A model generated the notes under the pieces. That model was not told the origin of the DNA, did not search any database, and saw nothing but the letters and a program-made list of their open reading frames with translations. A DNA stretch of 32,863 bases. Origin: a virus. Its lineage: Duplodnaviria > Heunggongvirae > Uroviricota > Caudoviricetes. The position numbers and the translations under genes were made by a program. The first letter of the stretch is position 1; each line of letters starts with the position of its first letter. Shown piece after piece: positions 4,635-25,634 of this stretch. The stretch lies in the IMG/VR virus record IMGVR_UViG_2700989508_000029; one strand, given 5' to 3'.

Positions 4635-4648
4635 TTAAAATCCCCTTA

Positions 4649-4852: not shown

Positions 4853-4865
4853 ATTTTAATCACCT

Positions 4866-4920: not shown

Positions 4921-4936
4921 TATTACACGTTAAATA

Positions 4937-5965: not shown

Positions 5966-5983
5966 TTATTATTATTCCTTTTA

Positions 5984-6555: not shown

Positions 6556-6904
6556 TTATATAAACCTTGTTACCTTGTTTAAAGTAAGAAATACAACTTT
6601 TAAGTTGCATAACGGGCAAAATAAAAGGCAGCATTTAGAGCCGCCTTTTATTAACTTGTACCTATGTAATTACCCTATGTTATGCATACTCCAAGATGTA
6701 TGCATAACAAAGGAAAAAAGAGGTAATAATGACACAGTATTTACTTAAGGAGGAGAAGCGGGGAGCGGAGATTTTACTCCCCTTTAACGACAAGAAGAAT
6801 TTTTAATATCGAACCAATAAAGGAAAAATAATCACCCCATATAATTATATTAACATATAATAGATGGAATGTCAAGATATTTTACAACTTTTTTGTTGCT
6901 TTTT

Positions 6905-7240: not shown

Positions 7241-7241
7241 A

Positions 7242-7652
7242 TTAAAAGTCTCCATAGTGATCAGCATTATCTAGAATCTGGAAGTCTGGAACTAAGTTAT
7301 TTAGGCCATTTGTGGCGAGATAACCAACGTAGTGGTTATAGTCTTCAAATCCTAAAATCTGGTATTTGCGTAAATCAGAGCTATCAACGATATACTCTTT
7401 TCTTTTTCTAGGTTTCCAGAATACGCCAGGTGTTGAAGATAAGATTTCTTGTAAGGCGTTAAATTCATCTCCGCAAGGCACAGAGGGAGAATGTTCTATG
7501 ATCTCTGTTTTCCATTCGCCAGGGGCGCTATTTTGCTTGGTGAGCGTAACTAGCTCTTTAAAGTCTTTGCGTCTTAGAATAGATTTAGGTTTACTTAGAA
7601 GAGAAGCTGAATCCCCGATTTTCTTAACAACGTTGTTTTTTCTTTTTGCCAT
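7242..7652 (-). CDS. hypothetical protein with a basic N-terminus (136 aa)
   Basis: ORF; K/R-rich N-terminus (MAKRKNNVVKK) suggests nucleic-acid binding (inference). Confidence 0.45.
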   Translation of the reverse strand: MAKRKNNVVKKIGDSASLLSKPKSILRRKDFKELVTLTKQNSAPGEWKTEIIEHSPSVPCGDEFNALQEILSSTPGVFWKPRKRKEYIVDSSDLRKYQILGFEDYNHYVGYLATNGLNNLVPDFQILDNADHYGDF

Positions 7653-7784
7653 TATTTACTTTTCCTTTTCTTTTAAAGGAAAACACCCCGAAGTATGTTT
7701 CTAACGTGAGAAAGAACAATAACCAATACATAGCTACTATCATAATAATGTTTTCCTTTTATATTTTAATTACATAGAGAGATT

Positions 7785-8063
7785 TTAGAGAGTGGAATAG
7801 ATGAATTCTATTTCTTTATCTAGTCTTTTGAGATTGAATGTAGAGAAAGATAATTCTTTAATTTCTATAACACCGAAGTTTGATAGCTGTTTCAGCCAGA
7901 ATTTTAAACCATCTTCAGAGCACCCTGCTCGATGTAACACATCGCTATATTTTAGCGGTGTTGGCTTTCCTTTATAGAGGTAAGCAAGTGTTTCGTAGAT
8001 GCGTTTTCCTGTGTCGTTACACTGAATTCTGTCTACTTGATTTTTTACTAAATATTGAATCAT
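7785..8063 (-). CDS. hypothetical protein (92 aa)
   Basis: ORF with GGAGG upstream of the ATG. Confidence 0.45.
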   Translation of the reverse strand: MIQYLVKNQVDRIQCNDTGKRIYETLAYLYKGKPTPLKYSDVLHRAGCSEDGLKFWLKQLSNFGVIEIKELSFSTFNLKRLDKEIEFIYSTL

Positions 8064-8074
8064 AACCCTCCTTA

Positions 8075-8767
8075 TTAAAATGGAATATCAAAGTCTTCGT
8101 ATACTTTGGGATGTTTCTTAGCAAAATATGCCTCAATACCATTTGGTAGCTTTAACCTGTGCTTATAGGCTAACGATGTTGCAAATTCTATAAATGATGC
8201 TCCTCCTGTTCTAGTATTCTTCTGCTTGATAATAAGAGAGGCAAAATTCTTTAACACATCCTCCTCATTATCATTAGCTACCTTTTCACTTGATGAAACA
8301 GGTGTTTCTTCCGTCTCCCACGGTAAAGGCGTATCCCAATCATCATCAAGAACATCAAAAGAAGGCTGTTTATGGCCTTTAGGTTGTTCCTGTGCTTCTT
8401 CTGCCTCAGAAAGATCAGAGAGTGATGATTCTCCTGGGGGAGTAATATGTGCATCTGTGAGAGGGAGAGCATTGTAAATCAAAGATGAAATATACGGATC
8501 AGGATGTGGGGATGTTTCTAATAATCCCATCTCTTTAAGATCGTTTATCTTACGTTTAATTGTTGACGCTGAAGACTTAAAAATCTTAGCTAATGTTTCG
8601 TGACTTTCATAACAATTAAGGTTGTTTTCCTGATAACTAAGGAATCGAAAATAAAGCACAATATGTAATAGATCTAAATCTTTTCCTTGAGGGAATTTAT
8701 CAGAATAAATCTTTGATACATTATCAAACGTGTCATAGTGTTTTGTAAAAGTTAGTTGGTTAATCAT
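8075..8767 (-). CDS. winged-helix DNA-binding protein, replication-initiator/replisome-organiser-like (putative Rep)
   Basis: N-terminal pattern LHIVLYFRFLS...ETLAKIFKSSASTIKRKINDLKEMGLLE resembles phage replisome-organiser / RepA_N winged-helix domains; acidic C-terminus. Start placed at ATG 8767 (AAGGAG 8 nt upstream) rather than the ORF-track 8791. Confidence 0.5.
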   Translation of the reverse strand: MINQLTFTKHYDTFDNVSKIYSDKFPQGKDLDLLHIVLYFRFLSYQENNLNCYESHETLAKIFKSSASTIKRKINDLKEMGLLETSPHPDPYISSLIYNALPLTDAHITPPGESSLSDLSEAEEAQEQPKGHKQPSFDVLDDDWDTPLPWETEETPVSSSEKVANDNEEDVLKNFASLIIKQKNTRTGGASFIEFATSLAYKHRLKLPNGIEAYFAKKHPKVYEDFDIPF

Positions 8768-8820
8768 TAAAAATCTCCTTGATGTAATCACGCTCTATGG
8801 CGCTACTATGGTGATAAAAA

Positions 8821-8991
8821 TCACTTGCTTTTATTTGAGAGTGTTTCAGCCTCTCTTTTCAACATATCAAGAATGTAATCTGTGACAGTGATCCGTCTAC
8901 TTCTGGCTTCTTTAAATAACACCTGAAATACTTCATCAGGAATATGAAAGCAAGTGCGTGGTTGTCTTTTCTTTTCTGTAGTTTCGCTCAT
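8821..8991 (-). CDS. ribbon-helix-helix (CopG/Arc-like) DNA-binding protein (about 56 aa)
   Basis: Start at ATG 8991 (MSETTEKKRQ...) with a strong AAGGAG 6 nt upstream; sequence PRTCFHIPDEVFQVLFKEARSRRITVTDYILDML fits a beta-strand/helix/helix RHH fold. Confidence 0.5.
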   Translation of the reverse strand: MSETTEKKRQPRTCFHIPDEVFQVLFKEARSRRITVTDYILDMLKREAETLSNKSK

Positions 8992-9010
8992 AGTTTTCTC
9001 CTTCTCTTCT

Positions 9011-9199
9011 TTACTCTGTTTCAGATTCTTTTTCATTTTTTCTTAGTTCATCAATAATCTTGAGTGCTTCATTGAAGCAAGCTGCTCGCTCTGGATAACC
9101 TCGACTCCTTGCCATATTACGATTCATTACTACTTGGTGGCGTGTAAGCTCACCTTTTTTAAATGCCTGGACGACGTGCTCAGGTGTAAACCATTTCAT
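9011..9199 (-). CDS. hypothetical small protein (62 aa), first gene of the operon
   Basis: ATG with AGGAG 8 nt upstream; an upstream promoter-like region contains three aaaacgctct repeats (9430..9600). Confidence 0.45.
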   Translation of the reverse strand: MKWFTPEHVVQAFKKGELTRHQVVMNRNMARSRGYPERAACFNEALKIIDELRKNEKESETE

Positions 9200-9855
9200 A
9201 AAAAACTCCTTATTCAGTTAAAAGAAAAAACACCTTGCAAGCCTGACGGCTTCAAAGTGCATTGATTTTGATTATTTAGAGAAGAATGTTTTTCTGTCCC
9301 TCTAATACCTATTATTACATATAAAGAAACATTTGTCAATACCTTTTCATAAAAAATCTGATCTTTTTCATGCACTTACATTTTTTCTTAGCAATTCGTG
9401 CTCTCCTATGTAGTGCTATTCTTCCTTATTGTCTAAAACGCTCTAAAACGCGTTCTAACGAGATTTTGATAAAAGCAATACATTCCCTTATCTAATGGCT
9501 GTTTAGCTCGCCAGAGGCTTATTTAAGTGGCTTATTTTGTATTTGTTAGATGATGATAGATATAAAACAGAGAGTCACTTTATAAAACGCTCTGTAAAGC
9601 CCTGTAGTGAGTTTATTATATGTAGGCAATGCGTTTCCATTCCCTACCCTGCTTAATGTTGTTAGAGAAGCATTTAGACCCCTTATTTTTAATTACCTAA
9701 AGTATCCTCTATACATCTCTGTTATGAAACACCTCTGAATCCTTCATAAAACACATTATGACGCAAAGAACACTTTTCTAAGGTGATTCCCTTCCTGAAT
9801 GCTGTTTCTTGCGTCAGAGAGCTACACAGAGCTTATAAAGATATTATTAATAATA

Positions 9856-9916
9856 AAGTAGATAAAGTAAGTAAGATAAGTAAGTAAGATAACTAAGATA
9901 GATAAGATTAATAAGA
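9856..9916. repeat. AAGTAAG / AGATAA short tandem repeat array
   Basis: Seen in sequence: gtagataaagtaagtaagataagtaagtaagataactaagatagataagattaataagat. Confidence 0.7.
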
Positions 9917-9961
9917 TCAGAATTCTCTTTCGGTGTCGCCTCTGGCTTTTCCACCGAAAAC

Positions 9962-10117
9962 AATTACACGACTACAGAATGTAGGAAGTGAAATTGTATT
10001 GAGGCTTAGTGAAATTACACGAGGAAAGCAGAGTGTAATTGAGCTTTAGCCGCTCTCTTCGAGTAATTACACAACTACAGAGAATAACGAGAGTTATTAA
10101 ATGTAGGAAGTGGAATT
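9962..10117. repeat. two copies of aattacac(g/a)actacaga...atgtaggaagtg(a/g)aatt, plus further TTACAC/GTGTAA half-sites
   Basis: Copy 1 at 9962..9993; copy 2 at 10066..10117 with an ~18-bp insertion; palindromic ttacacgaggaaagcagagtgtaa in between. Confidence 0.65.
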
Positions 10118-10340
10118 AAGAGGTAGAGAGTTACACATAAGCAATCAGTATGATTGGTTAGGTGATTACTCTTCTGCGCACAGCGCAATAGTATTTCTTC
10201 GTGGGCGTTACCGCCACGATAGTTACACGAAGAAAGTAACGCTTTGCTTTCGGTGTGAGCGGAACGGGCCAGCCACGAAGCCCGAAAGGTAGCGGAGTAA
10301 GGCTGCTTGCCAGAGAGTGAAGCTAACGCCGGAAGGCAAA

Positions 10341-10502
10341 AGATCATATATATATAGTATAAAGAATATTATTATGATCTAATTAATAATCTAATATAGT
10401 TTTATTAATAGTCTTATTGTAGTTCACAGTGACCTACCCCCTAGCTCACTATGACCTACCCCCTAGGTCACAGTGACCTATATAGTATAAAGAATATTAT
10501 TT
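10341..10502. repeat. 23-bp direct repeat tatatagtataaagaatattatt (10341..10363 and ~10479..10501) flanking a block of tgacctaccccctag repeats
   Basis: Seen in sequence; the inner block (10425..10479) holds two direct tgacctaccccctag copies plus an inverted gtcacagtgacc; a third related copy lies at 10703..10738. Confidence 0.7.
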
Positions 10503-10526
10503 ATATTATTTAATTATAGTATTGGT

Positions 10527-10626
10527 GGAACTCATTTCCTAGGTAGGTAGGAACTCATTTCCTAAGTAGGTAGGAAACCACTTCCTAGGTTACTTCCTAA
10601 ATAGATCGGAAATCATTTCCTAGGTG
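10527..10626. repeat. iteron-like array of (c)atttcctagg units (about 5 copies, ~22-bp period)
   Basis: ggaactcatttcctaggtaggtaggaactcatttcctaagtaggtaggaaaccacttcctaggttacttcctaaatagatcggaaatcatttcctagg. Confidence 0.7.
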
Positions 10627-10641
10627 TTATTTATTCTTATC

Positions 10642-10699
10642 GGGTATCAGTTTTGATAGGGGTATCAGACTTGATAGGGGTAACAGAATTCTGTGGGGG
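10642..10699. repeat. three ~19-bp direct repeats ggtatcag(nn)ttgatagg
   Basis: gggtatcagttttgataggggtatcagacttgataggggtaacagaattctgtggggg. Confidence 0.7.
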
Positions 10700-10739
10700 T
10701 AGTTCACTATGACCTACCCCTAGCTCACTGTGAGCTACC

Positions 10740-11680
10740 GTTACATTCAATCATCTTCCGATGTGTAATATCGTTACATTCAATAATTAGTCTATGTAAC
10801 ATATCGTTACTACCAACTTTCTTACAAAGAGCATTTCAGATAGCTGAATGTAACCTCTCGTTACATCCATTTGTCACATAGCACTCTGTGTAATGCCTTT
10901 CTATGTGTGTGCCATAATCCCCCCTATATTCCCTGTGTAAATCATAGAATATCCCTAACTTATTCCTGTGTAATTCCATACTAAAAATTCAATGAAAAAA
11001 GTAGCTTAAAAGTTCAATTCTTACTTTCTTCACTTTTACATCACTTTCGCAAATCCTTGTGTAATGCGGCTTACAGAGCACCATCAGAAATTGTTGGCTA
11101 AAAATTGTTCTGCTTGTTTCTTAATGAGTTTTCTTGTTTGTGCAAATTTTAAAATTTATTTTGTTTTTACAGCCTTATTTCGTGTAATGCGTGGCATAGC
11201 AAGCCCTTTTCTTGTGTTGTCAAGACATTTGGCAACGTTCAAACATCTGTTTAGAAATGCCAAATTGTTGATCTAACAAATAAACCTGTATAAACAGAAC
11301 ACCATTTAATCTATTCCCCTGTGTAATCCACTACATCACACGATAAAAACAAAAAACTTTTAATTATATTTCATAGCACACAAAAGTCAACAGAAGCCCT
11401 CTCGTGCTCCTACGTAAAAAATCCATCACTTTTCCCCTGATACATCAACTCAAGGCGTTCTATGTGTTCCTTAGTGCATATTACGATTATTATGTTAAAT
11501 GGATTTTGGCCTATATTTTGACCTGCACCCGCATAAACACTGGTTTCATCGCTTACAGCCCTTGTGAGACGTGGTGCTGTTTCTAGCATCTGATCCGACA
11601 TAAAACCGATCATTCTCGTGTTTAGTGAAAGTTTAGTGAGAGACATTACAGAAAGGCTTTCTGTGTAATGATTTAATAGG
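10740..11680. repeat. dispersed tcgttacat (4 copies, 10740..10870) and ctgtgtaat (at least 7 copies) motifs across a region with little coding potential
   Basis: Seen in sequence: accgttacattcaat, atcgttacattcaat, atcgttactacc, ctcgttacatcc; then ctgtgtaatgcc, cctgtgtaaatc, cctgtgtaattcc, cttgtgtaatgcgg, tcgtgtaatgcgtgg, cctgtgtaatcc, ctgtgtaatgatt. Confidence 0.6.
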
Positions 11681-11793
11681 TAAAAACGATGTTGATTACG
11701 CAAGAAAATTCCTTGCTGATATTTGGGGATTCTGGATTTTCCAGATCGGGGGGCGCTGAAAATCGCGTTAAGCACTTCTCGCAATCTAGCCAT
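11410..11793 (-). CDS. questionable ORF (127 aa) inside the repeat tract
   Basis: ATG start but no Shine-Dalgarno; overlaps the ctgtgtaat repeats; unremarkable composition. Listed only because nothing else covers the span. Confidence 0.2.
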   Translation of the reverse strand: MARLREVLNAIFSAPRSGKSRIPKYQQGIFLRNQHRFYLLNHYTESLSVMSLTKLSLNTRMIGFMSDQMLETAPRLTRAVSDETSVYAGAGQNIGQNPFNIIIVICTKEHIERLELMYQGKSDGFFT

Positions 11794-12137
11794 AAGGGAA
11801 GGGATATAGGTATTTAGATGTATTTATAGCTAATTTATAGCTATTTATTTTTTATTTACCTTTATTAAAAATAACCTTATAAATCAATAAGATACATAAT
11901 TATCTGTTTATATTCTAATCAATTAAATCAAGTTTAATACCCTTAAATAACCTGAAAATAGCCTTAAATACCCCAATAATTAATTTTAAGGTTTTCCGTG
12001 TTCTCTTCTGCATTATGAAAATGCAAAATAAGGCACAAAACAAGCTCACATACGCATTAAACACACATCACCTATACATCCCTATGCCAAGCAATGAAAA
12101 CAGCGTTAGAATGCGTCCTGTTGCGTTCTGGAGATTT

Positions 12138-12296
12138 TCAGAAATCCTCTCTAAGCCATTTCAACTCACTAAGGAGTTTTCTTTCTTCGTTCTCTCGTTG
12201 CTTTCGCTCTAGCCAGGCTTTTCCCTCTGGCGTAGACAGGAACTTACGAGCGTGAATCTTGCGGTTATTACGTTTGATAGCTGCAATGTTTTTCAT
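12138..12296 (-). CDS. possible small basic protein (52 aa; MKNIAAIKRNNRKIHARKFLSTPEGKAWLERKQRENEERKLLSELKWLREDF), absent from the ORF track
   Basis: My own translation of the minus strand; GAGG 6 nt upstream of the ATG; K/R-rich. Confidence 0.25.
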   Translation of the reverse strand: MKNIAAIKRNNRKIHARKFLSTPEGKAWLERKQRENEERKLLSELKWLREDF

Positions 12297-12900
12297 CGTG
12301 TGCCTCTGTATTCATATGAAAATTAACAAGTTACATACTACACAGGGAGACTACGCATAAAACACAATACAAGTAAAGATACATTTTCAAGACAATAGGA
12401 GCCATAAAGCGCCTTTGATGGTTATACCAAAAAATAAGCGCCGTAGGCGTATCCACTAAAAAGGGCTTTTTCACAAAAGCTATGAAGTCTTAGCAGTTCT
12501 TCTCTTATCAGGCACCCGTTGTACTCCGGTGGACGAAACCGTGCTAGAGCTTGATTCTTTCCCGATCAAGTTAGGTTTTGAAGAGGTGGGCTTTAATCCA
12601 CTATGCACTTAAAACTCTTCCCATCATTTAGCCTGTTTATCCTCTGCAACGTCTCACGACGTGTAGCATCATTGGACACCGCGCCAGGTGTGGAACATCT
12701 TGCTAAGAGTTTTGGTAGAAGGTTTAGAGACGGTGGCACGTCTTCCAGCTTCAAAGGAACTTGTTACGAGGTTGAGCCTGGGAACTACTCGCCCATACGT
12801 GTTACACTACCAAAGCCCATAACAACGTATAGGCGTTTGTAAGTGATAACAGAAGATACAATTTCTTAGAGAAGTTAAGCTAAGTTATTGATTTTCTTAA

Positions 12901-12917
12901 TGGTGCGATAATAGGAA
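12901..12917. repeat. degenerate third att-like site (tggtgc-gataatagga), putative junction between the two tandem elements
   Basis: Matches 16 of 17 positions of the att core with one deleted C; the left flank (ttgattttcttaa) resembles the flank of the 538 copy; the right flank (atacccccaaaagtacccccaaa, ~12965..12990) resembles the motif between the P4-type int and thrW (acccccataagtaccccca, ~31285..31308). Confidence 0.45.
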
Positions 12918-13257
12918 CAAAACAAACAATAAAAATACATTGATATATAAAGACATTTTCCCATTACATCTTTGTAGATACCCCCAAAAGTACCCCCAAA
13001 CAATTTTCTCTCACCACCATTTGCACATAAAGCAGCCATGTACAACTGGTAGTTGAACAGGCGGGTAGACCGTTCGTTCAGTAAATACCTGATATTTCCG
13101 CCAACGAGAAATTGCGTTGGCTGGCAGAGTGCAAATTTGCACGATAACCTAACCCATTGATTCTTTCGAAAACCCGCAATGCAGGAAGCCGGATAACACC
13201 ATTTTATAGCTCCGATCCCTTCAAAGTGAGGGGTAATTTGCCAAAACAGAGAGAGCA

Positions 13258-13545
13258 TTACTGTCTCTGGCAATCTTTATCGCGATAACGCCTGAAGTAC
13301 CCTCTCGCTTCCTCATCCATACCAAGAGCCGAATGAGTCCGCTTAACTGCCTGTCTTAAATCTCCGAATCTGTCTGTAGTTGCTGGTGGGCGTGCCGCCT
13401 TACGGATACATTCAGAGCGTCTGTTTGCTGCATGTTCACGTTCTTTATCGCCATCTGCCAGCATCATGACTTCTGCCCATCGTGCGGCAGCTCTCCGGTA
13501 TAGCCCTTTTGACTCCAGCTCTTCAGCTTTCCTGTCCTTTATCAT
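13258..13545 (-). CDS. PerC-family transcriptional regulator-like protein (95 aa)
   Basis: N-terminal LESKGLYRRAAARWAEVM resembles the conserved PerC/Pch motif; basic C-terminus. From motif memory. Confidence 0.55.
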   Translation of the reverse strand: MIKDRKAEELESKGLYRRAAARWAEVMMLADGDKEREHAANRRSECIRKAARPPATTDRFGDLRQAVKRTHSALGMDEEARGYFRRYRDKDCQRQ

Positions 13546-13575
13546 TTCTGCCTCTCAGATTATATAGATAAGCAA

Positions 13576-13706
13576 AAAGGTGTTGGTTCAGTTGGTTCAG
13601 TTGGTTCAATTTGTAAAGAGCGTTGTTTTTATTGTGTTTTTTCTAAAATATTGAACCAACATCAACTCATTTTGAACCAACACAGCCCAGCTCTGAACCA
13701 ACAACA
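13576..13706. repeat. iteron module A: three tandem GTTGGTTCA units, an AT-rich spacer, then three inverted TTGAACCAAC units; putative replication-origin-like site
   Basis: Seen in sequence; 13576..13617 is the exact reverse complement of 22113..22154. Confidence 0.7.
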
Positions 13707-13744
13707 CAGCGATAGATTTGCGATTGGTCCGTTATTTTCTGGCT

Positions 13745-13795
13745 GATATTTGAGCGTATAACAGTGTTATACAGTGGTATACTGTATGGATATTA
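13745..13795. promoter_or_regulatory. operator-like palindromes upstream of the RHH regulator gene
   Basis: gtataacagtgttatac (near-perfect palindrome) and ggtatactgtatgg directly upstream of the 13805/13817 start. Confidence 0.35.
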
Positions 13796-13804
13796 CTCAC
13801 TGAT

Positions 13805-14245
13805 ATGGTCTTTGCAATGAGCAAATCTAATCTGATCGCGTTCCGCATCCCATCTGAATTGCAGGATGAGTTTAATCGGTCTGTTCTCGCTTCTGGAGGG
13901 GATAAAACCTCCTGGCTTGTTGATGCGATTCGCATGAAGCTGGGACAGCCGGAAAAGTCTATTGATTCACGAATGCTTGGGCTGGTGGAGCGCATGGAAA
14001 AAGCCGCAGCATCGCTTATTGCCGGAAAGCCGAACATCCCACCAAAGCCATATAACGAAACGGCAGTTATAAAGATCATTGCCGATACCATCCGACAGGG
14101 ATTTGATAATGGGCGTGTGATAGCTGAACGGCTCAATGAAGCAGGCTACCAAACAAAAGCTGGTAAAGCGTGGGATAAAGACATTTACAGCGCGTGGAAG
14201 CGTCAGGATAACAATATTAAAAGAATCAATACGCTGCTTCAGTAA
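13805..14245 (+). CDS. two-domain DNA-binding regulator: N-terminal ribbon-helix-helix (Mnt/Arc-like) plus C-terminal recombinase-type DNA-binding motif
   Basis: SNLIAFRIPSELQDEFNRSVL...WLVDAIRMKL fits RHH; C-terminal IAERLNEAGYQTKAGKAWDKDIY resembles the DNA-binding motif of recombinase-associated domains. Start may be ATG 13805 or 13817. Convergent with the Abi gene. Confidence 0.55.
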   Translation: MVFAMSKSNLIAFRIPSELQDEFNRSVLASGGDKTSWLVDAIRMKLGQPEKSIDSRMLGLVERMEKAAASLIAGKPNIPPKPYNETAVIKIIADTIRQGFDNGRVIAERLNEAGYQTKAGKAWDKDIYSAWKRQDNNIKRINTLLQ

Positions 14246-14274
14246 TTGATCAGTGTATAAATGATATTTATCGC

Positions 14275-15252
14275 TCAATCGCTCCCTTTCCGCCCTTCAG
14301 CTACAGGGTCGTTGTCGGCGATAACAAAACCTAAGTCCTGAGAGAATCTCTCTCGTGGGAATCCTTTAGCAGGTAAACCCATTGAATCATATCCACATCC
14401 GGGAACATTTGGTTTAGAGTCAATAAGGTCTGCAATTTGCCGAAGCCATGTTGATCCCGGACCAAGTCGTTTAACTAAGTACCAGATAATACAGATCGCG
14501 CTAAAAATCCTCTCGCAACTCTCTGGATGGAGATTAAGTCCGTCAAAGTATTCATTATCCGGTACTGGAACTCGGGGATGCTTTCTATTCCATATTCTGG
14601 AATGGTGAGCGCAACGATTCCTTATGAGATTAAGGCACTTCAACCATTTTGCAAATGTCTGCTTATTATCAATGCCAAAACGACGTATAATTTTCCCCTG
14701 CATATGACCATTAAGCATCGCATAATATTTAGACATCTGACCAAAATCCCAGGTCTCCACCGCCACCCAAAATGGAATCTCCTTGCCTTGGCTTCGATGC
14801 CATTCAATACAGTCATCTCTGCTTTCGTCTAATTTTACTTTTTGCTTATACACCCAATGCTCGAAGGCAGATGAGAATTTTGGATTAATGTATTTTGATG
14901 ACATGTAGGCAAGTGGATCATTGCGACCAACCTCATGCGCGATGACTGAACGAACATGAATCTCTATTCTTTCGATAGCATCAATCATCAAAAGACGCAG
15001 TTTTTTGTCAAAAAGATATAGATCGTACGTCTTCTCGAAACTGGTACCAGTAAGAAATCGGTCTGTTCTGTACGAAAGACCTTTATCTGTTGTCGCAATA
15101 ATTCTTGATGGGTACCAAAAACCTGACAATCGATAATATCCAACCTGCGACAGCTTACGTATCGCACGATTTCGATCATTGATAATCATGCCACGTTCAA
15201 GTAGCAATCCTAGCAATTCGTGATAGTCCTTATGAGGCTTTGCGGCAATCAT
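14275..15252 (-). CDS. Abi_2-family (AbiD/AbiF-like) abortive-infection protein
   Basis: N-terminal signature KPHKDYHELLGLLLERGMIINDRNRAIRKLSQVGYYRLSGFWYP matches the Abi_2 family pattern; low GC. ORF track starts at a GTG (15297); I prefer ATG 15252. Confidence 0.7.
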   Translation of the reverse strand: MIAAKPHKDYHELLGLLLERGMIINDRNRAIRKLSQVGYYRLSGFWYPSRIIATTDKGLSYRTDRFLTGTSFEKTYDLYLFDKKLRLLMIDAIERIEIHVRSVIAHEVGRNDPLAYMSSKYINPKFSSAFEHWVYKQKVKLDESRDDCIEWHRSQGKEIPFWVAVETWDFGQMSKYYAMLNGHMQGKIIRRFGIDNKQTFAKWLKCLNLIRNRCAHHSRIWNRKHPRVPVPDNEYFDGLNLHPESCERIFSAICIIWYLVKRLGPGSTWLRQIADLIDSKPNVPGCGYDSMGLPAKGFPRERFSQDLGFVIADNDPVAEGRKGSD

Positions 15253-15885
15253 AGTGGCGAAACAAAAGATAATAAAAGGCCCGACCGTGAAACTCACATG
15301 CCTGAAATCGGCGGCGGAGAAACAGAGGATCGGGCTCGGTTGCCTGTAACTCTATCCGAAGTTATCCACATGTCAATGCACAGTTACTTAGGAAACTAAC
15401 ATAGGTACTATCATCACTCACGAAAAACCACTATATGTGGTTTTTATTCATATCGTTATCCACTACAGGCTGTGTCAATAACTTTTACCTATTAATTGGG
15501 TAATTTCTACATTTTCCTATGCTGGCTAGTTTCTCTACTGAAAAGTTGGCACTCCTTAATCGCTTTTCGGTTAATACTATCGGTCTTCATATTGCCAGCA
15601 GCATACGCCATCCGATAATTTCGATGCTACGCGCGCGTACTTGTCGCAAAATATCAGGCAAAGGCCAGATTCAGAACGTCGTGATAACCACCAGCACAAC
15701 ATGAGATGTCATGTAACACGATTTATCACATCAGATACATGTGATTGGTGTACCCGCATAAAACATCGTCATAGCGCGTCCTGTGCGCATATACGCCGAT
15801 AATCAACACATCACCACCACTCTGTCTCGTGTAGAGAACAGTTTCATGGTATCCCCCGCCATCGTGTGCGTACTGGTCGGACGTA

Positions 15886-15906
15886 GTTGCAAAATTTTTG
15901 CAACTG
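15886..15906. promoter_or_regulatory. near-perfect palindrome agttgcaaaatttttgcaact (operator-like) in the intergenic region upstream of the membrane-protein gene
   Basis: Seen in sequence; nearby gcgcgtactggtc direct repeats (x2) and the palindrome ggatttgaaatcc. Confidence 0.35.
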
Positions 15907-16121
15907 ATACCCCTCGCGCGCGTACTGGTCACGAAATTGGTGTTTTGCTGTGGCAGTGATATCAGAAAAATCTTCCTGTTTCACATAAAGCGGATATGCG
16001 CGTACTGTAACGGCCCCATCAACGGGGATCGGATTTGAAATCCCGACCCAAGCTATGTACCAAATGCCATGTCTTGGATATATGATGATTGCCATTCTAA
16101 ACAACGCTAAAGGGGGTTGGT

Positions 16122-16736
16122 GTGAGCAGAAAAGATACTAAAGAATTGCTAACTATCTGCATGGTGTACTTTTCAATTTATTTTTGTGCATACATGATAG
16201 TCCCAGATGAGTTTGAACATGGCAGTATTATTTATTCCATAACATTCTATTTTTTAGAGCTAACACCAATTTTGGCTATCCTTTTGGCAATACATATTTA
16301 TTTTTCCTTAAAAAAAGAATCGACTAATTGGGAGAAGGTATGGAGAGACAGAGGATTTCTAACATCACCTAAAGATGATGCATATGAGAGTGATTTTTCT
16401 GACTTTATAACAAACTACTACTCCAGCGAACAATTCAAAAATAGACTGTCTGATGTTTGGGAAACAGCAATGTATTCCATAGGGATTATATTATTGATAC
16501 TTACTGGTATTGCTCAATATGTTTTTAACATTGACTTATCATTAAATCCTGAAAATTTAATATCGCCATTGATTTTTGGTGAGATATTGATCTTCTCATT
16601 CGGAATTTTCTTGAGTGTTGTTCTCTGCTCATTATGCAAACTACTGACTAACAGGTATCCAGGTGAAGCAAGGAGAGCAAGAAAGGCAAATCCATATTAT
16701 CTTTTATTTCCTAATGGAGACAGCAGAGATATCTAA
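16122..16736 (+). CDS. small inner-membrane protein (about 4 TM helices), candidate superinfection-exclusion/defence protein
   Basis: Four hydrophobic segments (LLTICMVYFSIYFCAYMIV, ITFYFLELTPILAILLAIHIYF, AMYSIGIILLILTGIAQYVF, LIFGEILIFSFGIFLSVVLCSL); low GC; sits where sieA lies in P22 (directly after gene 16, opposite strand). Function is inference. Confidence 0.6.
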   Translation: MSRKDTKELLTICMVYFSIYFCAYMIVPDEFEHGSIIYSITFYFLELTPILAILLAIHIYFSLKKESTNWEKVWRDRGFLTSPKDDAYESDFSDFITNYYSSEQFKNRLSDVWETAMYSIGIILLILTGIAQYVFNIDLSLNPENLISPLIFGEILIFSFGIFLSVVLCSLCKLLTNRYPGEARRARKANPYYLLFPNGDSRDI

Positions 16737-16754
16737 GCCATCCATGGCTACCAG

Positions 16755-18860
16755 TTATTGAGCTTCTTTTTGTGATGCCTGTGCGACTCTGGTGAGCGAT
16801 TGTGTGACCGTACTGATCGCTCTGTCATATGCTGTGCTACCTTTTGGCGTATTTGCCAAACGTAACAAGGCATTTCGTATAACAGGGCTTTCGTATGCCT
16901 TCGCGGCTCCGCCTACGGCACCAGCAGCAGGAACAACAAACGCAGCCGTTTTTAGCATCCCCGCTAATACTGCTGCGTTTATGATGCCACCACCAACTAA
17001 CAATCCATAAAGCTGCTGACCATTTAAGTTTTGAACGTTCGCTTTTGCCGCGTGTCTTGTATCGTTGAGGTATTTAATAACGCCGTCCAGTTCCTTTCCA
17101 TGTACGCCTTTAAAGAAAGTTGCTGATTGCTTCCTGTTCCGGTGTAACGCATTAATAAACTTCTCAACACTGATATTTCCAGACGGATCAGTCGCCTTAT
17201 CTACAGCATTCTGAACTATGGCTGCTCGTGCGTTTTGCCTACCATTGTCATCCAGAAGCCTGTAAAGCTGAGAACGTTCTGATGGGCTTTGGCTAAAAAC
17301 GAGTTTTGTTACATCCTCAGGCGTGGCCTTGCCGCTGGCTATTGCCTTTTGAACGCGCGTTCTTCCCATCATGTCATTGAATTTAGACCATGAGCGATCA
17401 ACCCTTGCCATATTAATGGCTTCGTCTGCTCCAAGATTTTTGGCTACGGCTTTTTTCATATCCGCCGTATATGCCTTGTAGATAATATCGCTGGCTTTCT
17501 GGAGCGTATCTTTATCAACAGTGTCAGATGACGCCATAAACCGCTTTCGAAGATCGGTTCTGTTTTCCCTCGCCAGACGCAGGTCATTTGGTCCGCTGGT
17601 GATATCGTCTTTAAATTGCTGCAAGACTTTTACCGCGGCTCTATCCTGAGATTTACCCGGGCGGCTTAACACAGCAATCTGATTGTCGATAGCTTTTACC
17701 GTGTTTGAGAGATCGACAGGGGTATCCCCCATAGCGTCAATTATGCGGTTATATCGCTTTCCTGCTGCCTCAATGAATTTTTGTTGCCCTTTAGTCGCAG
17801 ATTCATAAAGCTGTTTATCAGAAATGCCACCCAGACCATCGCTAAATGTTCTGACTAAATTTTCTCGTGCTTGTTGTTGATTCAGCCGATTCTTACCGGT
17901 TCCAAAAAAAGGAACTCTTTCGCCTAATGTCTGAGCCTGACTCTGCATAAAGGTTTTATCTTTCAGCATGTCACTGGTCATTAACGGCAGATTTCTTTCC
18001 GATGCAAAGTCGACAGCAGCCTTTGCTTCAGGCGACATATCACCACGAACAGCCCTCGAAACCGCACTCGCTGTATTTTCCAGCCCCTTACCAATACCAC
18101 CAATGCCAGCAGAAATTACCGTTTGTAACGGATCAATATCTTCTCCACCAGCAAGGCTAGTGGCTCCCTGTAGTGCTAAATCTGTAGCTGCTGATTTTCC
18201 TATGGCACCAAGCACCGTTCCAGCCCTGCCCGCTGGTGTAAACGCCAGCGCATTAGCCAGAAACGATGCCACGTCTTGCGGCGATAAACCCGGCTTGTTC
18301 AGAGCATAATCACCGGATGGCAGGGAAACGATAGTGTTACCCTTCTCATCCTGCCTTAATTTCGCTCCCATGCTCTGAAGAATCTTTTCCTGAGATGCGT
18401 CAGAGCCGAAAAGTTGAGACCATCGAGCTTTTAGAGCATCCATGCTGAGTGAGGTTAACTCTGGGGCAAGGTCGACATTTTGCAGTCTCTCCATCTCTGG
18501 AGTCATTCGGCTTTCGCCTGTTATAGCATCGCGCATCGCAGCCCCAAGACTGGCTCCCTGTTCTGCTGAACGCTCAAGCCCCTCTCTTTGCTGAGTAGCT
18601 AACTTTGCATACCCTGACGCAAGAGAATTATCAGATGATGTATGTTGAATATTTTGAGTTGCTGATTGGGATCGGTCTATTTCATTCGTTGATGGTAGTG
18701 GATAGGCAGCATAAAAAGCCTGCTTAGCCTGCTCTACACTTTCTCCGGCTTGCGGGGCCACGACTTCATTGAAGTATTGCTCCTGAGCCTGCGCTTTTTG
18801 TTCTGGTGCTAACGCCTGATACTGTGGAGAGGCGATAACATCTTTCCATGCTTTAGCCAT
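16755..18860 (-). CDS. phage ejection (DNA-transfer) protein, P22 gp16-like (701 aa)
   Basis: Fourth gene of an operon with TAATG-coupled junctions; sizes and order 153/225/473/701 aa parallel P22 genes 14/7/20/16 (gp7 ~229, gp20 ~471, gp16 ~609 aa); A/Q/G-rich composition. Assignment is inference from architecture. Confidence 0.5.
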   Translation of the reverse strand: MAKAWKDVIASPQYQALAPEQKAQAQEQYFNEVVAPQAGESVEQAKQAFYAAYPLPSTNEIDRSQSATQNIQHTSSDNSLASGYAKLATQQREGLERSAEQGASLGAAMRDAITGESRMTPEMERLQNVDLAPELTSLSMDALKARWSQLFGSDASQEKILQSMGAKLRQDEKGNTIVSLPSGDYALNKPGLSPQDVASFLANALAFTPAGRAGTVLGAIGKSAATDLALQGATSLAGGEDIDPLQTVISAGIGGIGKGLENTASAVSRAVRGDMSPEAKAAVDFASERNLPLMTSDMLKDKTFMQSQAQTLGERVPFFGTGKNRLNQQQARENLVRTFSDGLGGISDKQLYESATKGQQKFIEAAGKRYNRIIDAMGDTPVDLSNTVKAIDNQIAVLSRPGKSQDRAAVKVLQQFKDDITSGPNDLRLARENRTDLRKRFMASSDTVDKDTLQKASDIIYKAYTADMKKAVAKNLGADEAINMARVDRSWSKFNDMMGRTRVQKAIASGKATPEDVTKLVFSQSPSERSQLYRLLDDNGRQNARAAIVQNAVDKATDPSGNISVEKFINALHRNRKQSATFFKGVHGKELDGVIKYLNDTRHAAKANVQNLNGQQLYGLLVGGGIINAAVLAGMLKTAAFVVPAAGAVGGAAKAYESPVIRNALLRLANTPKGSTAYDRAISTVTQSLTRVAQASQKEAQ

Positions 18861-20281
18861 TAATCACCCCATAGTGAAGAAAAGTTACTGCTGGCTGCTG
18901 GCTGTGATACCTGCTCAGATTGCGGCAATGTCTGCGACGAAGAAGAAGTTCCTCTGTCAACTGCTGAAATAACCCGCAAAGCATCATAAGCTCGACCAGA
19001 AGCAGCTTTCAGCGAATTGAACTGGTTTTCCATCTTCCGGCGCTTGGTATCAATGGTTTTTGTGGAGTCGCCAGGCTGAGGGAAATACATTTGATAATAT
19101 TTTGACATTTCAGCAGGTACGATGGCTGCCCCTGTTTCCTGACGGAGTATTGCCATTATTGCGTCATTAGCATTAACAACGTATTGCTGTTCTGTTGGGC
19201 TGAGCGTTAAGTTAGCCAGCGTCCCATTACCCAAAGCATTATTAATGATCGCCACTCGCTGTGGGCTAAGCTGGTCTTTCAGTGTATCTATTGAATCAAG
19301 AGCATCCCTAACCCTGTATGCAAATCCAGCAGCTTTTTTAGCCCCTTCTGGCGACTTTTCCATGATCTTTTGGGCTGTTGGCAAAGCTATTGGACGAAAC
19401 CCATCTCCAGATATTGGCTGGTTTAGTTTTCCCTGCTCTTCACTTCCGTCTGTGTAGTATTTTGTGACAGTGCCATCATCGTTTTCTCTAACACTCATTA
19501 ATTTTTTGGCGTTTGTATTAATTCCAGCCGCTGCCGCAAATGCCGCCGCCCCCTCTGGATCCGCCTTTAACATTTGAGCGTACTGATTGTAATTCTGCAT
19601 TGCTGCTGTTGGTGCATATGCTGACGTTAACGCATTTGCTCGGCTAATATCCTGCCCTCTCGCCTGAAGTGCTTCGCCAGCCTGATTGCTGCGGATTGTC
19701 TCTGCCAACTTGCCACGCTCAATATCCCGACCTTCCATTTGATCTTTGATATCGAAATACTTCTCATGACCGAGAGAAAACAGTGCCATACTACCAGCAA
19801 GCCGCTGGAACCCCTGTGGATCATTAACATGCATTTCGGCAACAGACTCAGGAGAAATTCCCAAGCGACGCATTTCATCTTCGTTATCTGCTATGAATTT
19901 TCCAAATGCCCCAGTTCCGAGCGAAGATGCGATTTGAGCACTAGTCGCAAGATGACCAATAGAATTTCTCTGGTCGTCATCAATAAAGCCCATCCCTTTC
20001 TGAACGCTTTCAAATTCTTCTGGATACTCAGAAATAAGACTGCGCATTTTGTTTCTGTCTCCAGACTCAAAAGCCCCGGCATATGCTTTCTGAAACTCTG
20101 CTTTACGCTGTTGTTGACGTGCCTGCTGATTAATCTCAGCAACGCCTCTTAGCCCCTGTAGCGCCATTAAACCTACGTTTGGCTGCTGCTGATACTGCAC
20201 AGGCTGAGGAACGGAAGAACGAGGAGCATTATCATTTTGCGGTGCCATGCTAGGCAGCCCGCCAAGTTGCCATGTCGCCAT
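18860..20281 (-). CDS. phage ejection protein, P22 gp20-like (473 aa)
   Basis: Start ATG overlaps the upstream TAA (TAATG); size matches gp20; Q/A-rich. Confidence 0.5.
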   Translation of the reverse strand: MATWQLGGLPSMAPQNDNAPRSSVPQPVQYQQQPNVGLMALQGLRGVAEINQQARQQQRKAEFQKAYAGAFESGDRNKMRSLISEYPEEFESVQKGMGFIDDDQRNSIGHLATSAQIASSLGTGAFGKFIADNEDEMRRLGISPESVAEMHVNDPQGFQRLAGSMALFSLGHEKYFDIKDQMEGRDIERGKLAETIRSNQAGEALQARGQDISRANALTSAYAPTAAMQNYNQYAQMLKADPEGAAAFAAAAGINTNAKKLMSVRENDDGTVTKYYTDGSEEQGKLNQPISGDGFRPIALPTAQKIMEKSPEGAKKAAGFAYRVRDALDSIDTLKDQLSPQRVAIINNALGNGTLANLTLSPTEQQYVVNANDAIMAILRQETGAAIVPAEMSKYYQMYFPQPGDSTKTIDTKRRKMENQFNSLKAASGRAYDALRVISAVDRGTSSSSQTLPQSEQVSQPAASSNFSSLWGD

Positions 20282-20958
20282 TAGAATCCAAGCCCCCCAA
20301 CAAGACCAATAAGCCCACCACCAATAGCGCCGGCCGCAGTTCCTATTCCAGGAACAACGGAACCAAGTTGCGCACCCGCTAAAGCGCCTGATGCTGCCCC
20401 ACCAATACCACGCGCAAGACTGGATGGCTGCTGCGCCTGACCTGCACGAATAGCGCCAAGCCCCTGCAAGAGTTGTCCGGTATTATTGGCGTAGTTTTGC
20501 CCTGCCGTTGCCTGCCCTGATGCCGCATTCATCCCGACATTTAGCAGGTTTCCATAATTTTGCATTTGCCCACTAAGCCAATTGTTATAAAGCATGGGCG
20601 CAATGGAAGATAACTGGTTACTGGTAGCTGTTGAGCCAAGCCCCCCGGTAGCTTCTGCTGAGACAAGGTTCTGATAACGGGCCTGATCTGCCTGTGTTTT
20701 ATATAAACCAGAACCAAAGAAATCATTCGCTGCTTTATTCTGCCCTTCCAGAGTCATCAGTCCTTGTAGTTGTTGTAAAGCAGGCAATCCGACTTCTGCA
20801 TACGGCTTGAGATTATTCATCACCGTATTCCACTGCTCGCGCTGCAAATCAATTGCCTGCTGCTGGGCCTTCGCCTGAGCTTTAGAGGCACCACCATCAC
20901 CGCCTTTTTCGTATACGGCACGATTGAGATGTTTATGAGCTATATGGGTAATTAACAT
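20281..20958 (-). CDS. phage ejection protein, P22 gp7-like (225 aa) with Gly-rich hydrophobic C-terminus
   Basis: C-terminal GIGGAASGALAGAQLGSVVPGIGTAAGAIGGGLIGLVGGLGF; size matches gp7; coupled to flanking genes. Confidence 0.5.
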   Translation of the reverse strand: MLITHIAHKHLNRAVYEKGGDGGASKAQAKAQQQAIDLQREQWNTVMNNLKPYAEVGLPALQQLQGLMTLEGQNKAANDFFGSGLYKTQADQARYQNLVSAEATGGLGSTATSNQLSSIAPMLYNNWLSGQMQNYGNLLNVGMNAASGQATAGQNYANNTGQLLQGLGAIRAGQAQQPSSLARGIGGAASGALAGAQLGSVVPGIGTAAGAIGGGLIGLVGGLGF

Positions 20959-21413
20959 TCGCTGAATTCCTTATATTGTTGCCGAGTTAACTGATAAAGC
21001 GTTACGCCGACGGGTTTACCACATCTGATATAAGCATCATCAAGGTGACCAACACGGGTAGCGCCAAGCAAACGGATAATTGCCCGTCCGTATTTCGTGG
21101 TGTCAGGAACCATAGTGATGCTGTTAAGGAATGGTGAGTTTTCGAGAAGCCATTTGCAGAATAATCGATGTCCTTGCAGTGCATATTCACCACGGAATCC
21201 GGGGTCGTACACCGCATGGCATTCAACAACGCTATGCCAGAAGCTACGCACTTCATGAACGCCAGCCAGCACCAATCCTTCGTAGATGCCGAGATATACC
21301 GCATCAGGCTTGATGTAGTACGTGTGCCCCGGCTCAACAATATTTTCGGTATTGCCTGGCTCGTTAAGAAAGGCCTGTAATCGCACAGGGTTATCAATAA
21401 ATTTTAGTTCCAT
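20952..21413 (-). CDS. gp14-like protein (153 aa), first gene of the ejection-protein operon
   Basis: Size and position analogous to P22 gene 14; 8-nt overlap with the next gene. Confidence 0.45.
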   Translation of the reverse strand: MELKFIDNPVRLQAFLNEPGNTENIVEPGHTYYIKPDAVYLGIYEGLVLAGVHEVRSFWHSVVECHAVYDPGFRGEYALQGHRLFCKWLLENSPFLNSITMVPDTTKYGRAIIRLLGATRVGHLDDAYIRCGKPVGVTLYQLTRQQYKEFSEC

Positions 21414-21429
21414 GCGATGCCATCCATTT

Positions 21430-21591
21430 TCACATACAGCCTGCCAGCGCCTTATCTATTAACCCTCGTGCAATTTCATGCAGAGTTGGCGCTACTCCAA
21501 TTCCTGATTTTTTACGCTGCTCTTCCTGAATTTTCTTTATCGCTTCCATTTGCTTCTCACTTATCAATACCGGCTTTACTGAAATAGCCAT
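21430..21591 (-). CDS. possible small DNA-binding protein (53 aa; MAISVKPVLISEKQMEAIKKIQEEQRKKSGIGVAPTLHEIARGLIDKALAGCM), absent from the ORF track
   Basis: My own translation; AGGGGG 4-5 nt upstream of the ATG; ends 17 nt before the gp14-like start. Confidence 0.3.
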   Translation of the reverse strand: MAISVKPVLISEKQMEAIKKIQEEQRKKSGIGVAPTLHEIARGLIDKALAGCM

Positions 21592-22036
21592 AACGCCCCC
21601 TTAGAACTGTATAAAACAACAGTTATTATAGTTTCACAAATCGCAATATTCATCATAGTAATTGCAAAATATGAAACAAATAGCACAAAAAAATGCCACC
21701 GCTCAGTAGCTGGTGGCATCGTTCTGTGTGTCAGGTTTTGACAGGTTTTTTATGGACTCTAAAAACTATATTTATGGTGTCGCATTACTCTTCACGGCAG
21801 GCGCTTTTCAGTTCTGCCCTTGCTTCTGGCTCCATTGGTAATTTGATTCGCGATCAGCTATGCGGATGGTTTGCTGAACAGGCATAACAACTTCTCAGAG
21901 GCTGTTTTTTGAACTGCGAAAATTTCGTAGTGCTCACTTTCAAAAACGTCACGCCCTTGTACACAGGATTTTACGAAAGTCTCGTAAAACACTCTCTGAT
22001 GCCAGCCAGGTGTTGTGCGCATCAATTCAGTCACAT

Positions 22037-22155
22037 TGTGTTGGTTCAAAATACCGTGTTGTTGGTTCAGTGTTGGTTCAATAAAAAGAATAAAATCCTT
22101 ATAAAACAATACACTTTACAAATTGAACCAACTGAACCAACTGAACCAACACCTT
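22037..22155. repeat. iteron module B (putative ori next to the primase gene): three GTTGGTTCA units, spacer, then three tandem inverted units
   Basis: Seen in sequence; mirror image of module A; lies 20 bp downstream of the primase stop. Confidence 0.7.
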
Positions 22156-22175
22156 TTCTACGCACATGAAGAAGC

Positions 22176-25624: not shown

Positions 25625-25634
25625 GGCTCCATCC

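Follow-up and report, generated by a model that had tools for sequence, protein, structure and literature searches.

The window analysed here, a stretch of 32,863 nucleotides (nt) filed as IMG/VR virus record IMGVR_UViG_2700989508_000029 (Caudoviricetes), carries at 13732-16750 an Abi_2 gene, a gene for a protein of 146 amino acids (aa) and a gene for a 204-aa membrane protein. The region probably holds two independent modules, an AbiF-like unit of an RNA antitoxin and a HEPN toxin and a SieA-type block of DNA injection, both assigned by analogy with characterised relatives and both placed in a two-slot hotspot of an Escherichia coli island. The stretch 13200-16800 is 100% identical to the chromosomes of E. 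coli O26 and other strains (megablast against complete E. coli genomes). An earlier note, made from the letters of the sequence, had described a defence-like cargo cluster in which a convergent ribbon-helix-helix (RHH) regulator, the Abi_2 gene and the membrane protein formed a three-gene arrangement. All three open reading frames (ORFs) are present at the coordinates and in the order that it gave, and the defence-like character of the cargo is supported. The most likely partner of the Abi protein is a conserved RNA encoded directly upstream of its gene, which that note had overlooked.

The Abi protein

The product of the Abi gene matches the Pfam family Abi_2 (PF07751) along the full length of the profile (2-184 of 184, E=2.3e-52, 178.4 bits with a cutoff of 25.6) and one AbiD model in PADLOC (E=6e-58, 194.7 bits), which bears out the assignment to Abi_2 made earlier. 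It is homologous along its full length to PDB entry 8vz6 (E=3.9e-36). This entry is the AbiF protein of a Prevotellaceae bacterium (PbAbiF), a homodimer with two copies of a non-coding RNA and the sole solved member of the family (PMC12373285). The HEPN motif R-phi-xxx-H is found as RNRCAH (R211 to H216) and is invariant across 26 homologues; R211 and H216 align with R210 and H215 of PbAbiF, which are named as the catalytic residues (PMC12373285).

AbiF of the C. difficile phage phiC2 is a further relative, with 29% identity across 92% of the length of the window protein. Experiments have established that this AbiF is a toxin and that RCd22, the RNA upstream of it, neutralises it (PMC12373285). 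The AbiD/F group as a whole is described as a protein with an upstream non-coding RNA antitoxin, that is, a type III toxin-antitoxin system (PMC12373285, PMC13064643, PMC12737573). By analogy, the gene at 14275..15252 is predicted to encode an Abi_2/AbiD-F family HEPN ribonuclease, which would be the toxic component of an abortive-infection module of the AbiF-like type III toxin-antitoxin kind.

A longer version of the protein (340 aa) starting from a GTG at 15297 was considered. It was rejected because this start would fall inside the RNA and because homology to 8vz6 and the relatives begins at the ATG at 15252.

A conserved structured RNA upstream of the Abi gene

Loci encoding Abi relatives with 38-68% identity were fetched from Enterobacterales, Pseudomonas, Vibrio, Pasteurellaceae, Desulfobulbales and cyanobacteria (80 loci). 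Across these loci the 90 nt preceding the start codon are conserved better than the Abi gene itself, and the leader retains 86% nucleotide identity in loci where the Abi proteins are 66-68% identical. Nearly all loci display the same pattern: a TTGACA-type promoter followed by AAYCGNGCCCRNYCCYCUG, a variable hairpin and YAYGRNYNGGGCCUUCUUGUUUYU. In the window RNA, GCCCGAUC and GGUCGGGC pair as stem P1. This is followed by an internal loop, which is CUC in the window and CYC in the consensus, then by a UG/YA helix of 2 bp and by the P2(-P3) hairpin, which is variable. The tail on the 3' side of P1 is U-rich and conserved, reading CCUUUUAUUAUCU in the window and CCUUCUUGUUUYU in the family consensus.

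Analysis with RNAalifold of an alignment with 64 distinct copies (A3) gave 16 pairs in two helices, and compensatory double changes were found in 12 of the 16. In this structure 94.7% of the cells are paired, a share that falls to 27-45% on sliding the 3' partners. For covariation the score is 0.556, compared with 0.08-0.16 in the controls, and this value was attained by none of 500 shuffles. The internal-loop nucleotides C17, C18, U21, A58 and G60 are invariant in A3. A covariance model (R1) finds a single site in the window (Table 1) and one site each in 74 of the 80 homologous loci, always directly upstream and on the strand of the gene, with no further match anywhere in the 488 kb of these loci. 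The model also detects, at 59.3 bits, the RNA of another allele found in E. coli A34, which was absent from the seed. Single-sequence folding of the window and A34 RNAs recovers the helices.

No Rfam family of any kind matches the RNA, including in a scan of 161 nt (15240-15400) at E<=10. Scans of the whole window at the gathering score, and of 13500-16800 and 15240-15400 at E<=10, gave only chance-level matches within 13732-16750, with no abiF motif. The abiF family of Rfam 15 (RF03085) has as its consensus a 37-nt hairpin, CCCGCC-A-AGC...GCU-CAAAUC-GGCGGG, and gave no match at the gathering score in 20 homologous loci. As a positive control, the same model found two copies in RCd22 when run on the phiC2 leader (37.6 and 19.5 bits).

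An RNA supported by covariation and lying outside Rfam is a new element, and the RNA variant is possibly undescribed. A wider proposal is put forward tentatively, with confidence somewhat short of even. The RNA would be an undescribed class of AbiF-associated antitoxin RNA, distinct in structure from Rfam abiF, belonging to one Abi_2 clade with members in Enterobacterales, Pseudomonas and Vibrio and as far away as Desulfobulbales and cyanobacteria. The toxin and its RNA would move together as a cognate cassette under a fixed promoter platform, in the hotspot of an island that has P4-type genes for integration and replication, P22-type ejection genes and its own SieA.

Two observations concern single copies of the RNA. 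In Candidatus Electronema, R1 matches a truncated RNA copy at a contig end (L042:1-46), some 3 kb ahead of the Abi gene by which the locus was found. The sequence directly upstream of that Abi gene looks degenerate, and a second Abi module may lie nearby. In the A34 allele (L088:3425-3516) the conserved CCUUC after the closing stem is able to pair with GGAGG, the ribosome-binding site of the toxin gene, and some alleles may thus have an additional lock on translation. This 15-nt segment has been lost from the window allele.

Promoter platform and exchange of RNA and toxin

From the sigma-70-like promoter match ahead of the RNA, transcription would begin at about 15345-15341, with only a few bases left to the first RNA helix. 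The promoter scan was not enriched over shuffled sequence and the match alone is weak evidence; a TTGACA-type -35 element is found at the equivalent relative position in most homologous loci. Another TTGACA upstream, at 15478, was considered as a second promoter and discarded, as no acceptable -10 element comes after it. The spacer of the promoter contains TGTGGATAA (15362-15370, minus strand), the reverse complement of which we take to be a perfect DnaA-box consensus, and AGTGGATAA is located 93 nt upstream (15455-15463, minus strand). These two may be due to chance or represent a regulatory input.

The promoter is part of an upstream platform that is common to both E. coli Abi alleles and partly to Enterobacterales relatives, and nhmmer aligns it with four of the fetched loci (L006, L007, L008 and L012). 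A hairpin in the platform, AAAAACCAC-ATATA-GTGGTTTTT at 15443..15421, could insulate the cassette from read-through. There are 56 further genomes that match the cassette only over 15331..15560 (megablast, 98.7%).

One of these, E. coli A34, carries a different AbiD-family gene in the same slot (PADLOC E=2.7e-57), and judging by its RNA and its size this protein appears to belong to a clade of about 51% identical relatives. The window and A34 show no difference in DNA over 250 nt or more of upstream sequence, up to and including the -10 hexamer and the 4 nt after it (...TAGAGTTACA; alignment columns 1-256). Divergence starts at the first positions of the RNA model and continues through the gene. 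The exchanged unit is therefore RNA plus toxin under a common promoter platform. Such joint exchange is what would be expected of a cognate antitoxin-toxin pair, and the junction of the cassette, which lies a few bases past the -10 hexamer common to both alleles, is a new element.

In the proposed mechanism the promoter would drive transcription of the RNA of about 80 nt from 15344 to 15267, and most transcripts would stop at the U-rich tail after the closing stem. Read-through would yield the mRNA of the HEPN ribonuclease (15252..14275). The RNA would bind the Abi dimer and block the RNRCAH active site, as in PbAbiF-AbiFr and AbiFCd-RCd22. Infection would upset the balance between RNA and protein, whereby the ribonuclease would be freed to exert its predicted toxicity and arrest the cell. 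A role of the RNA as a direct antitoxin, and not merely as an attenuator, is favoured with some reservation by analogy with these relatives.

The SieA-like membrane protein

The gene for the 204-aa protein is located directly after, and is convergent with, a gp16-like gene. The earlier note had called this a sieA-like position and the product a protein with four transmembrane segments; the position is as described and the protein itself is a SieA homologue. A Kyte-Doolittle scan gives four hydrophobic segments (residues 9-27, 39-57, 112-137 and 150-168) in the same pattern as in the HS1 protein. In BLASTP the protein is 29% identical to SieA of phage P22 over 108 aa (E=8e-8) and 34% identical over 118 aa to the protein at the sieA position of the E. 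coli HS prophage (E=2e-9), which is inferred, from position only, to be the published type B SieA. The match in PHROGs is SieA-like and weak (E=4.4e-4).

An exhaustive HMMER search gave 43 representatives of the family, mostly of 160-175 aa, with the common motifs YSSExxxNRxSD and CKLLTGRYPGEAxxxRK; the 204-aa protein carries YSSEQFKNRLSD and TNRYPGEARRARK. When the family profile was compared with P22 SieA in hhalign, the probability was 99.3% over 143 columns (E=3e-20). A Citrobacter homologue with 50% identity is found in a full P22-like prophage with the order gp16, homologue, orf, mnt, arc, ant and tailspike.

SieA proteins are of three types, of which B and C have an extra N-terminal transmembrane segment, and all are encoded after gene 16 (Leavitt et al. 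2024, PMC10883804). They block DNA injection, with escape mutations in gp16 and gp20, and their single-gene function is established (PMC10883804). A cytoplasmic motif common to all types is FxRYPxEAxxFNK (PMC10883804); in TNRYPGEARRARK the RYPGEA core and the final K are kept, and the F and FN positions differ. On the strength of these similarities the product of 16122..16736 is judged to be a true but divergent SieA homologue. Homology with P22 SieA suggests that it would act in the inner membrane and block DNA injection by P22-like phages via gp16 and gp20.

The lineage is rare in a word-indexed search, which found it in E. coli, in one Citrobacter cluster with 50% identity and in one marginal match. 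No match to the 204-aa protein was found by tblastn in 50,697 phage records. PADLOC gave no match to the 204-aa, 146-aa or PerC proteins, a result that is uninformative for the 204-aa protein because P22 SieA itself has no PADLOC model.

A two-slot hotspot in E. coli

Blocks of the island are found in 615 of 5,426 complete E. coli genomes (about 11%), and at least 80% of 13200-16800 is carried by 62 of 617 matching E. coli records. With at least 80% covered, this Abi allele is present in 73 genomes, this SieA-like gene in 102 and the whole stretch 13200-16800 in 61; these are overlap totals only and not per-genome co-occurrence, and they imply that each cargo is also found without the other.

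An alignment of four islands (A1) shows a conserved left block with the PerC gene, the intergenic repeats and the 146-aa gene to about 14208. This is followed by a variable slot (slot 2, about 14208 to 15570/15621), a conserved middle block of 505 bp and a second variable slot (slot 1), which opens just past a ribosome-binding site and a GTGAG start (16122) that the islands have in common and is followed by the gp16-like gene. Slot 2 is occupied by the Abi cassette in the window, by an ImmA/IrrE protease gene and a 125-aa gene in PK5, and by a 73-aa gene in MS14385 and 214-4. Slot 1 holds the 204-aa gene in the window, 214-4 and A34; PK5 and MS14385 have an unrelated membrane protein of 118 aa there, accompanied by another gp16 allele. 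Judged by this alignment, the common E. coli island is a two-slot defence hotspot, and the hotspot itself is new.

The alternative slot-1 genes (16122; L002:8877 and L003:7846) diverge after the common ribosome-binding site and GTGAG. The alternative 118-aa protein, with four transmembrane segments, goes with a 705-aa gp16 allele, and the gene in the exclusion slot and the type of ejection protein may co-vary.

The 505-bp block contains five copies of a GCGCGTACTG-like 10-mer and ends in the ribosome-binding site and GTG start common to the alternative slot-1 genes. Its minus-strand ORFs are frame-broken by indels that differ among strains. The block has no match in the 50,697 phage records, nor do its ORFs in PHROGs; megablast and distant blastn of the whole region against the same records gave no match. 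The block may serve to regulate the gene in slot 1.

The 146-aa gene and the flanking repeats

The 146-aa gene is found beside PerC with every cargo examined, whether Abi, the ImmA/IrrE pair or the 73-aa gene, and its last 12 codons or so lie within the variable cassette. Homologues of about 143 aa with 64-78% identity are spread across Enterobacterales (367 sequences), and the gene is absent from 78 of the 80 Abi_2 loci of other taxa. Its distribution in the sequences compared indicates that the gene is island backbone and not an Abi partner, and its product is probably a conserved DNA-binding backbone regulator.

The convergence with the Abi gene reported in the earlier note is present and repeats lie upstream of the 146-aa ORF; it is the RHH identity that is doubtful. 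A homologue in public databases carries the name 'Arc-like DNA binding domain', and the N-terminus, IAFRIPSELQDEFNRSVLASGGDKTSWLVDAIRMKL, fits a strand-helix-helix pattern. Alignment with hhalign to P22 Arc and Mnt is in register but weak (pairwise E 0.005-0.006, probability 6-8%), and no Pfam RHH family matches the protein in a Pfam scan that included family members. An AlphaFold2 (AF2) monomer has residues 1-12 unstructured, helices at 13-25 and 32-42 and a C-terminal helical domain, the only part modelled with confidence (predicted local distance difference test 85-93). The C-terminal domain has a weak similarity to HTH_62 in 27 of 30 members. In the PDB, neither sequence and profile searches with the protein nor a Foldseek search with its AF2 model gave a significant match. 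The RHH label is weakly supported and unproven.

The divergent intergenic region between PerC and the 146-aa gene has three tandem copies of GTTGGTTCA with 9-bp spacing, facing three copies of TGAACCAAC, and the arrangement is invariant in the four islands compared. The repeats are candidate operators for the 146-aa protein, or candidate arm-type sites of the integrase near the island end. PerC is the last backbone gene of the island and adjoins the chromosomal junction in relatives (LysR-pseudogene or dinD; L002-L004, L088).

Alternative explanations

The three genes are physically adjacent and the whole stretch occurs in 61 E. coli genomes, as would be expected if the Abi_2 protein, the RHH-like protein and the membrane protein were one multi-gene defence system in which the regulator controls Abi and the membrane protein is a partner or effector. 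In Raoultella (L006) a 146-aa homologue likewise converges on the Abi gene, and Rahnella (L008) has an incomplete copy of it; these two loci, both from Enterobacterales, are apparently the same hotspot, and a functional link there has a low probability. A single system of this kind is nevertheless very improbable. The SieA family has its own single-gene function (PMC10883804), the genes lie on different strands with separate upstream regions, and the Abi cassette and the SieA-like gene are in separate slots with counts that imply independent occupancy. The 146-aa gene stays in place with non-Abi cargo and is missing from 78 of the 80 Abi loci, as is the SieA-like protein from all 80, so that 78 have neither neighbour. 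The partnership of three genes suggested in the earlier note does not survive these comparisons. It is also improbable that the cluster is the decaying right arm of a P22-like prophage (gene 16, sieA and immI) with no present function and Abi as a passenger. Such decay would agree with the lack of head and tail genes, with the frame-broken ORFs of the 505-bp middle block and with the SieA homologue that is followed by mnt, arc, ant and tailspike in a genuine P22-like prophage. However, the long ORFs (701, 473, 325 and 204 aa) are all intact, and dozens of unrelated strains have them at 99-100% conservation. Island blocks are found in 615 genomes, with ordered replacement of cargo at fixed junctions, which indicates an active hotspot rather than decay.

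PADLOC and DefenseFinder treat AbiD as a single-gene system, and the PADLOC match in the window is to a single AbiD model. The RNA could then be only a cis-acting leader, an attenuator and in some alleles an anti-Shine-Dalgarno element, with Abi as a single-gene AbiD-type system. A GC-rich stem and a conserved U-rich tract immediately before the start codon would suit such a leader, as would the ability of CCUUC in A34 to pair with the ribosome-binding site, and RCd22 itself also works in cis through premature termination (PMC12373285). This explanation is considered unlikely, since the invariant internal-loop nucleotides exceed the needs of a terminator, RNA and protein are exchanged as a unit that diverges a few bases past the -10 hexamer, and both experimentally characterised AbiF relatives reviewed use the upstream RNA as a direct antitoxin.

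Several points weigh against two modules of which one has an RNA antitoxin. The window Abi allele has no obvious Shine-Dalgarno sequence ahead of its ATG, the terminator scan made no call at the U-tract site and the thermodynamic z-scores of the single-sequence folds are modest (-1.2 and -1.9). RF03085 gives no match at E<=10 in 13500-16800 or in the 161 nt of 15240-15400, and R1 gives no significant match to the phiC2 abiF leader with RCd22. Homology of the window RNA to known AbiF antitoxin RNAs is unproven because neither covariance model detects the RNA of the other; the window RNA and RCd22 are alike in general design, with a GC-rich closing stem and conserved single-stranded pyrimidines, and differ in architecture. 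The SieA homologue is located in an element without head and tail genes, unlike all sieA genes examined by Leavitt et al. (PMC10883804). The overlap nature of the genome counts and the arrangement in Raoultella and Rahnella belong here as well, and what supports the Abi and SieA-like modules at this locus is drawn from sequence. With these points taken into account, an AbiF-like RNA-toxin unit beside an independent SieA-type gene is still the probable explanation.

Gene order, composition and the surrounding island

The features of the region are listed in Table 1. The convergent 146-aa ORF and Abi gene are separated by 29 bp, and RefSeq leaves a gap of 870 bp without annotation between the Abi gene and 16122..16736. 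The GC content has its minimum over the membrane gene (0.32-0.37), followed by the Abi gene (0.39-0.43), with the ejection genes at about 0.45-0.53; the low GC noted earlier is thus confirmed. Genes similar to gp20, gp7 and gp14 come after the gp16-like gene and reach 21413 (PHROGs 770, 917, 598 and 651; Pfam Inj_translocase and DUF2824).

Table 1. Features in and around the cargo region, with positions in the window
Feature	Position	Strand	Basis
PerC-family regulator gene	13258..13545	-	Pfam PerC, E=3.1e-33; RefSeq annotation
Iteron-like repeats, GTTGGTTCA x3 and TGAACCAAC x3	13582..13706		Repeat search; divergent PerC / 146-aa intergenic region
146-aa ORF (RefSeq hypothetical protein)	13805..14245	+	ORF confirmed
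Abi gene (RefSeq Abi family protein), 325 aa	14275..15252	-	Pfam Abi_2 PF07751; PADLOC AbiD
Conserved structured non-coding RNA or leader, about 80 nt, predicted antitoxin	15267..15344	-	Covariance model R1, covariation; no RefSeq annotation
Sigma-70-like promoter match TTGACA-16-TAGAGT	15376..15349	-	Promoter scan, 10/12 matches
Upstream platform with promoter, common to both E. coli Abi alleles and partly to Enterobacterales relatives	15346..15570		Pairwise alignment, megablast
Conserved block of about 505 bp between slots	15621..16126		Alignment A1; in all islands examined
SieA-like membrane protein gene, 204 aa (RefSeq hypothetical protein)	16122..16736	+	ORF confirmed
gp16-like ejection protein gene, 701 aa	16755..18860	-	phrog_770 'DNA transfer protein', E=3e-161

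The island (window 16755-31254) is located at tRNA-Thr (31423-31495), adjoining proA. It carries a P4-type integrase (Arm-DNA-bind_3), a helix-turn-helix (HTH) gene, AntA, Ash and a Zn-ribbon/Toprim_3/DUF927 alpha-like primase. P22-type gp14, gp7, gp20 and gp16 are also present, and no portal, terminase, coat or tailspike genes were found in the RefSeq annotation or with Pfam. Genes similar to sid, delta or psu are lacking in the annotation of the island, in which no search aimed at these genes was made. The island looks like a satellite of P22-like phages with its own ejection proteins, or a conserved chimeric remnant.

Strong Rfam matches to C4 antisense RNA (79.5 bits, 27354-27441, minus strand) and isrK (67.1 bits, 27504-27581, minus strand) lie downstream of the AntA gene, within the ORF that RefSeq lists as 'ash family protein'. 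The arrangement resembles the immI-type c4/ant control region of P1 and P7, and the start of the Ash ORF may be over-extended.

A second integrative element occupies the window from about 600 to 13000, with the LysR-pseudogene junction on one side and PerC on the other. Its genes include an integrase (612-1976), Dit-like, tape-measure-like (609 aa), Phage_cap_E capsid and HTH_36 genes, and some 3 kb of it (about 9177-12138) is low in GC and bears no annotated gene. This element is not at this position in 214-4 and A34.

Significance and comparison with known systems

AbiD/F proteins are widespread defence genes, and recent work puts them at the root of Cas13. To our knowledge, standard annotation still handles AbiD as a single gene, with no model for the RNA found here. 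An RNA that marks a large Gram-negative Abi_2 clade would make these loci annotatable as two-component RNA-protein systems and would be a second, structurally different RNA for comparison with AbiFr and CRISPR RNAs. It would also explain why such genes may resist cloning without their native upstream DNA, as reported for lactococcal relatives. The hotspot further includes a SieA lineage that, in the word-indexed search, is found almost only in E. coli and Citrobacter.

By homology, both the Abi gene and the SieA gene belong to families already known. The AbiF systems (PbAbiF-AbiFr, AbiFCd-RCd22 of C. difficile phi027/phiC2, and lactococcal AbiD, AbiD1 and AbiF) have the same Pfam Abi_2 domain and the same HEPN motif. 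They are likewise carried on mobile elements, with the same layout of a promoter, a short structured RNA with a U-rich end and the toxin gene (PMC12373285, PMC13064643). The RNAs differ in that RF03085 is a 37-nt hairpin, present twice in RCd22, whereas the window has one two-helix element of 65-80 nt with a CYC internal loop on the 5' side. The function of the window clade is predicted from these relatives.

ToxIN and AbiQ have the same order of promoter, antitoxin RNA, terminator-like element and RNase toxin, and the same abortive-infection logic. Their antitoxins ToxI and antiQ are tandem repeat arrays processed by a toxin of the ToxN fold, whereas the window has a single-copy structured RNA and a HEPN toxin.

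SieA of P22 (type A) and the type B SieA of HS1 are, like the window protein, small multi-pass membrane proteins encoded just after and convergent with gene 16. The extra N-terminal transmembrane segment of types B and C is found in the window protein, and the RYPGEA motif is common. The identity to P22 and HS1 SieA is 29-34% and only over the C-terminal 60% or so, with the motif TNRYPGEARRARK instead of FxRYPxEAxxFNK. The P22 and HS1 proteins are found in P22-like prophages, whereas the window homologue is in an island without head and tail genes.

Rousset and colleagues reportedly described in 2022 defence hotspots of P2 phages and P4 satellites in which unrelated defence genes interchange between conserved flanks. 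Those hotspots (see also PMC13586616) likewise occupy fixed positions in mobile elements, and the window island shares with them a P4-type integrase, an Ash-family protein and an alpha-like primase. It differs in its flanks, which are the 146-aa gene and PerC on one side and the gp16-like gene on the other, in having two adjacent slots and in its P22-type ejection genes. The junctions at which cargo is exchanged differ as well, one being a few bases past a shared -10 hexamer and the other just past a shared start codon.

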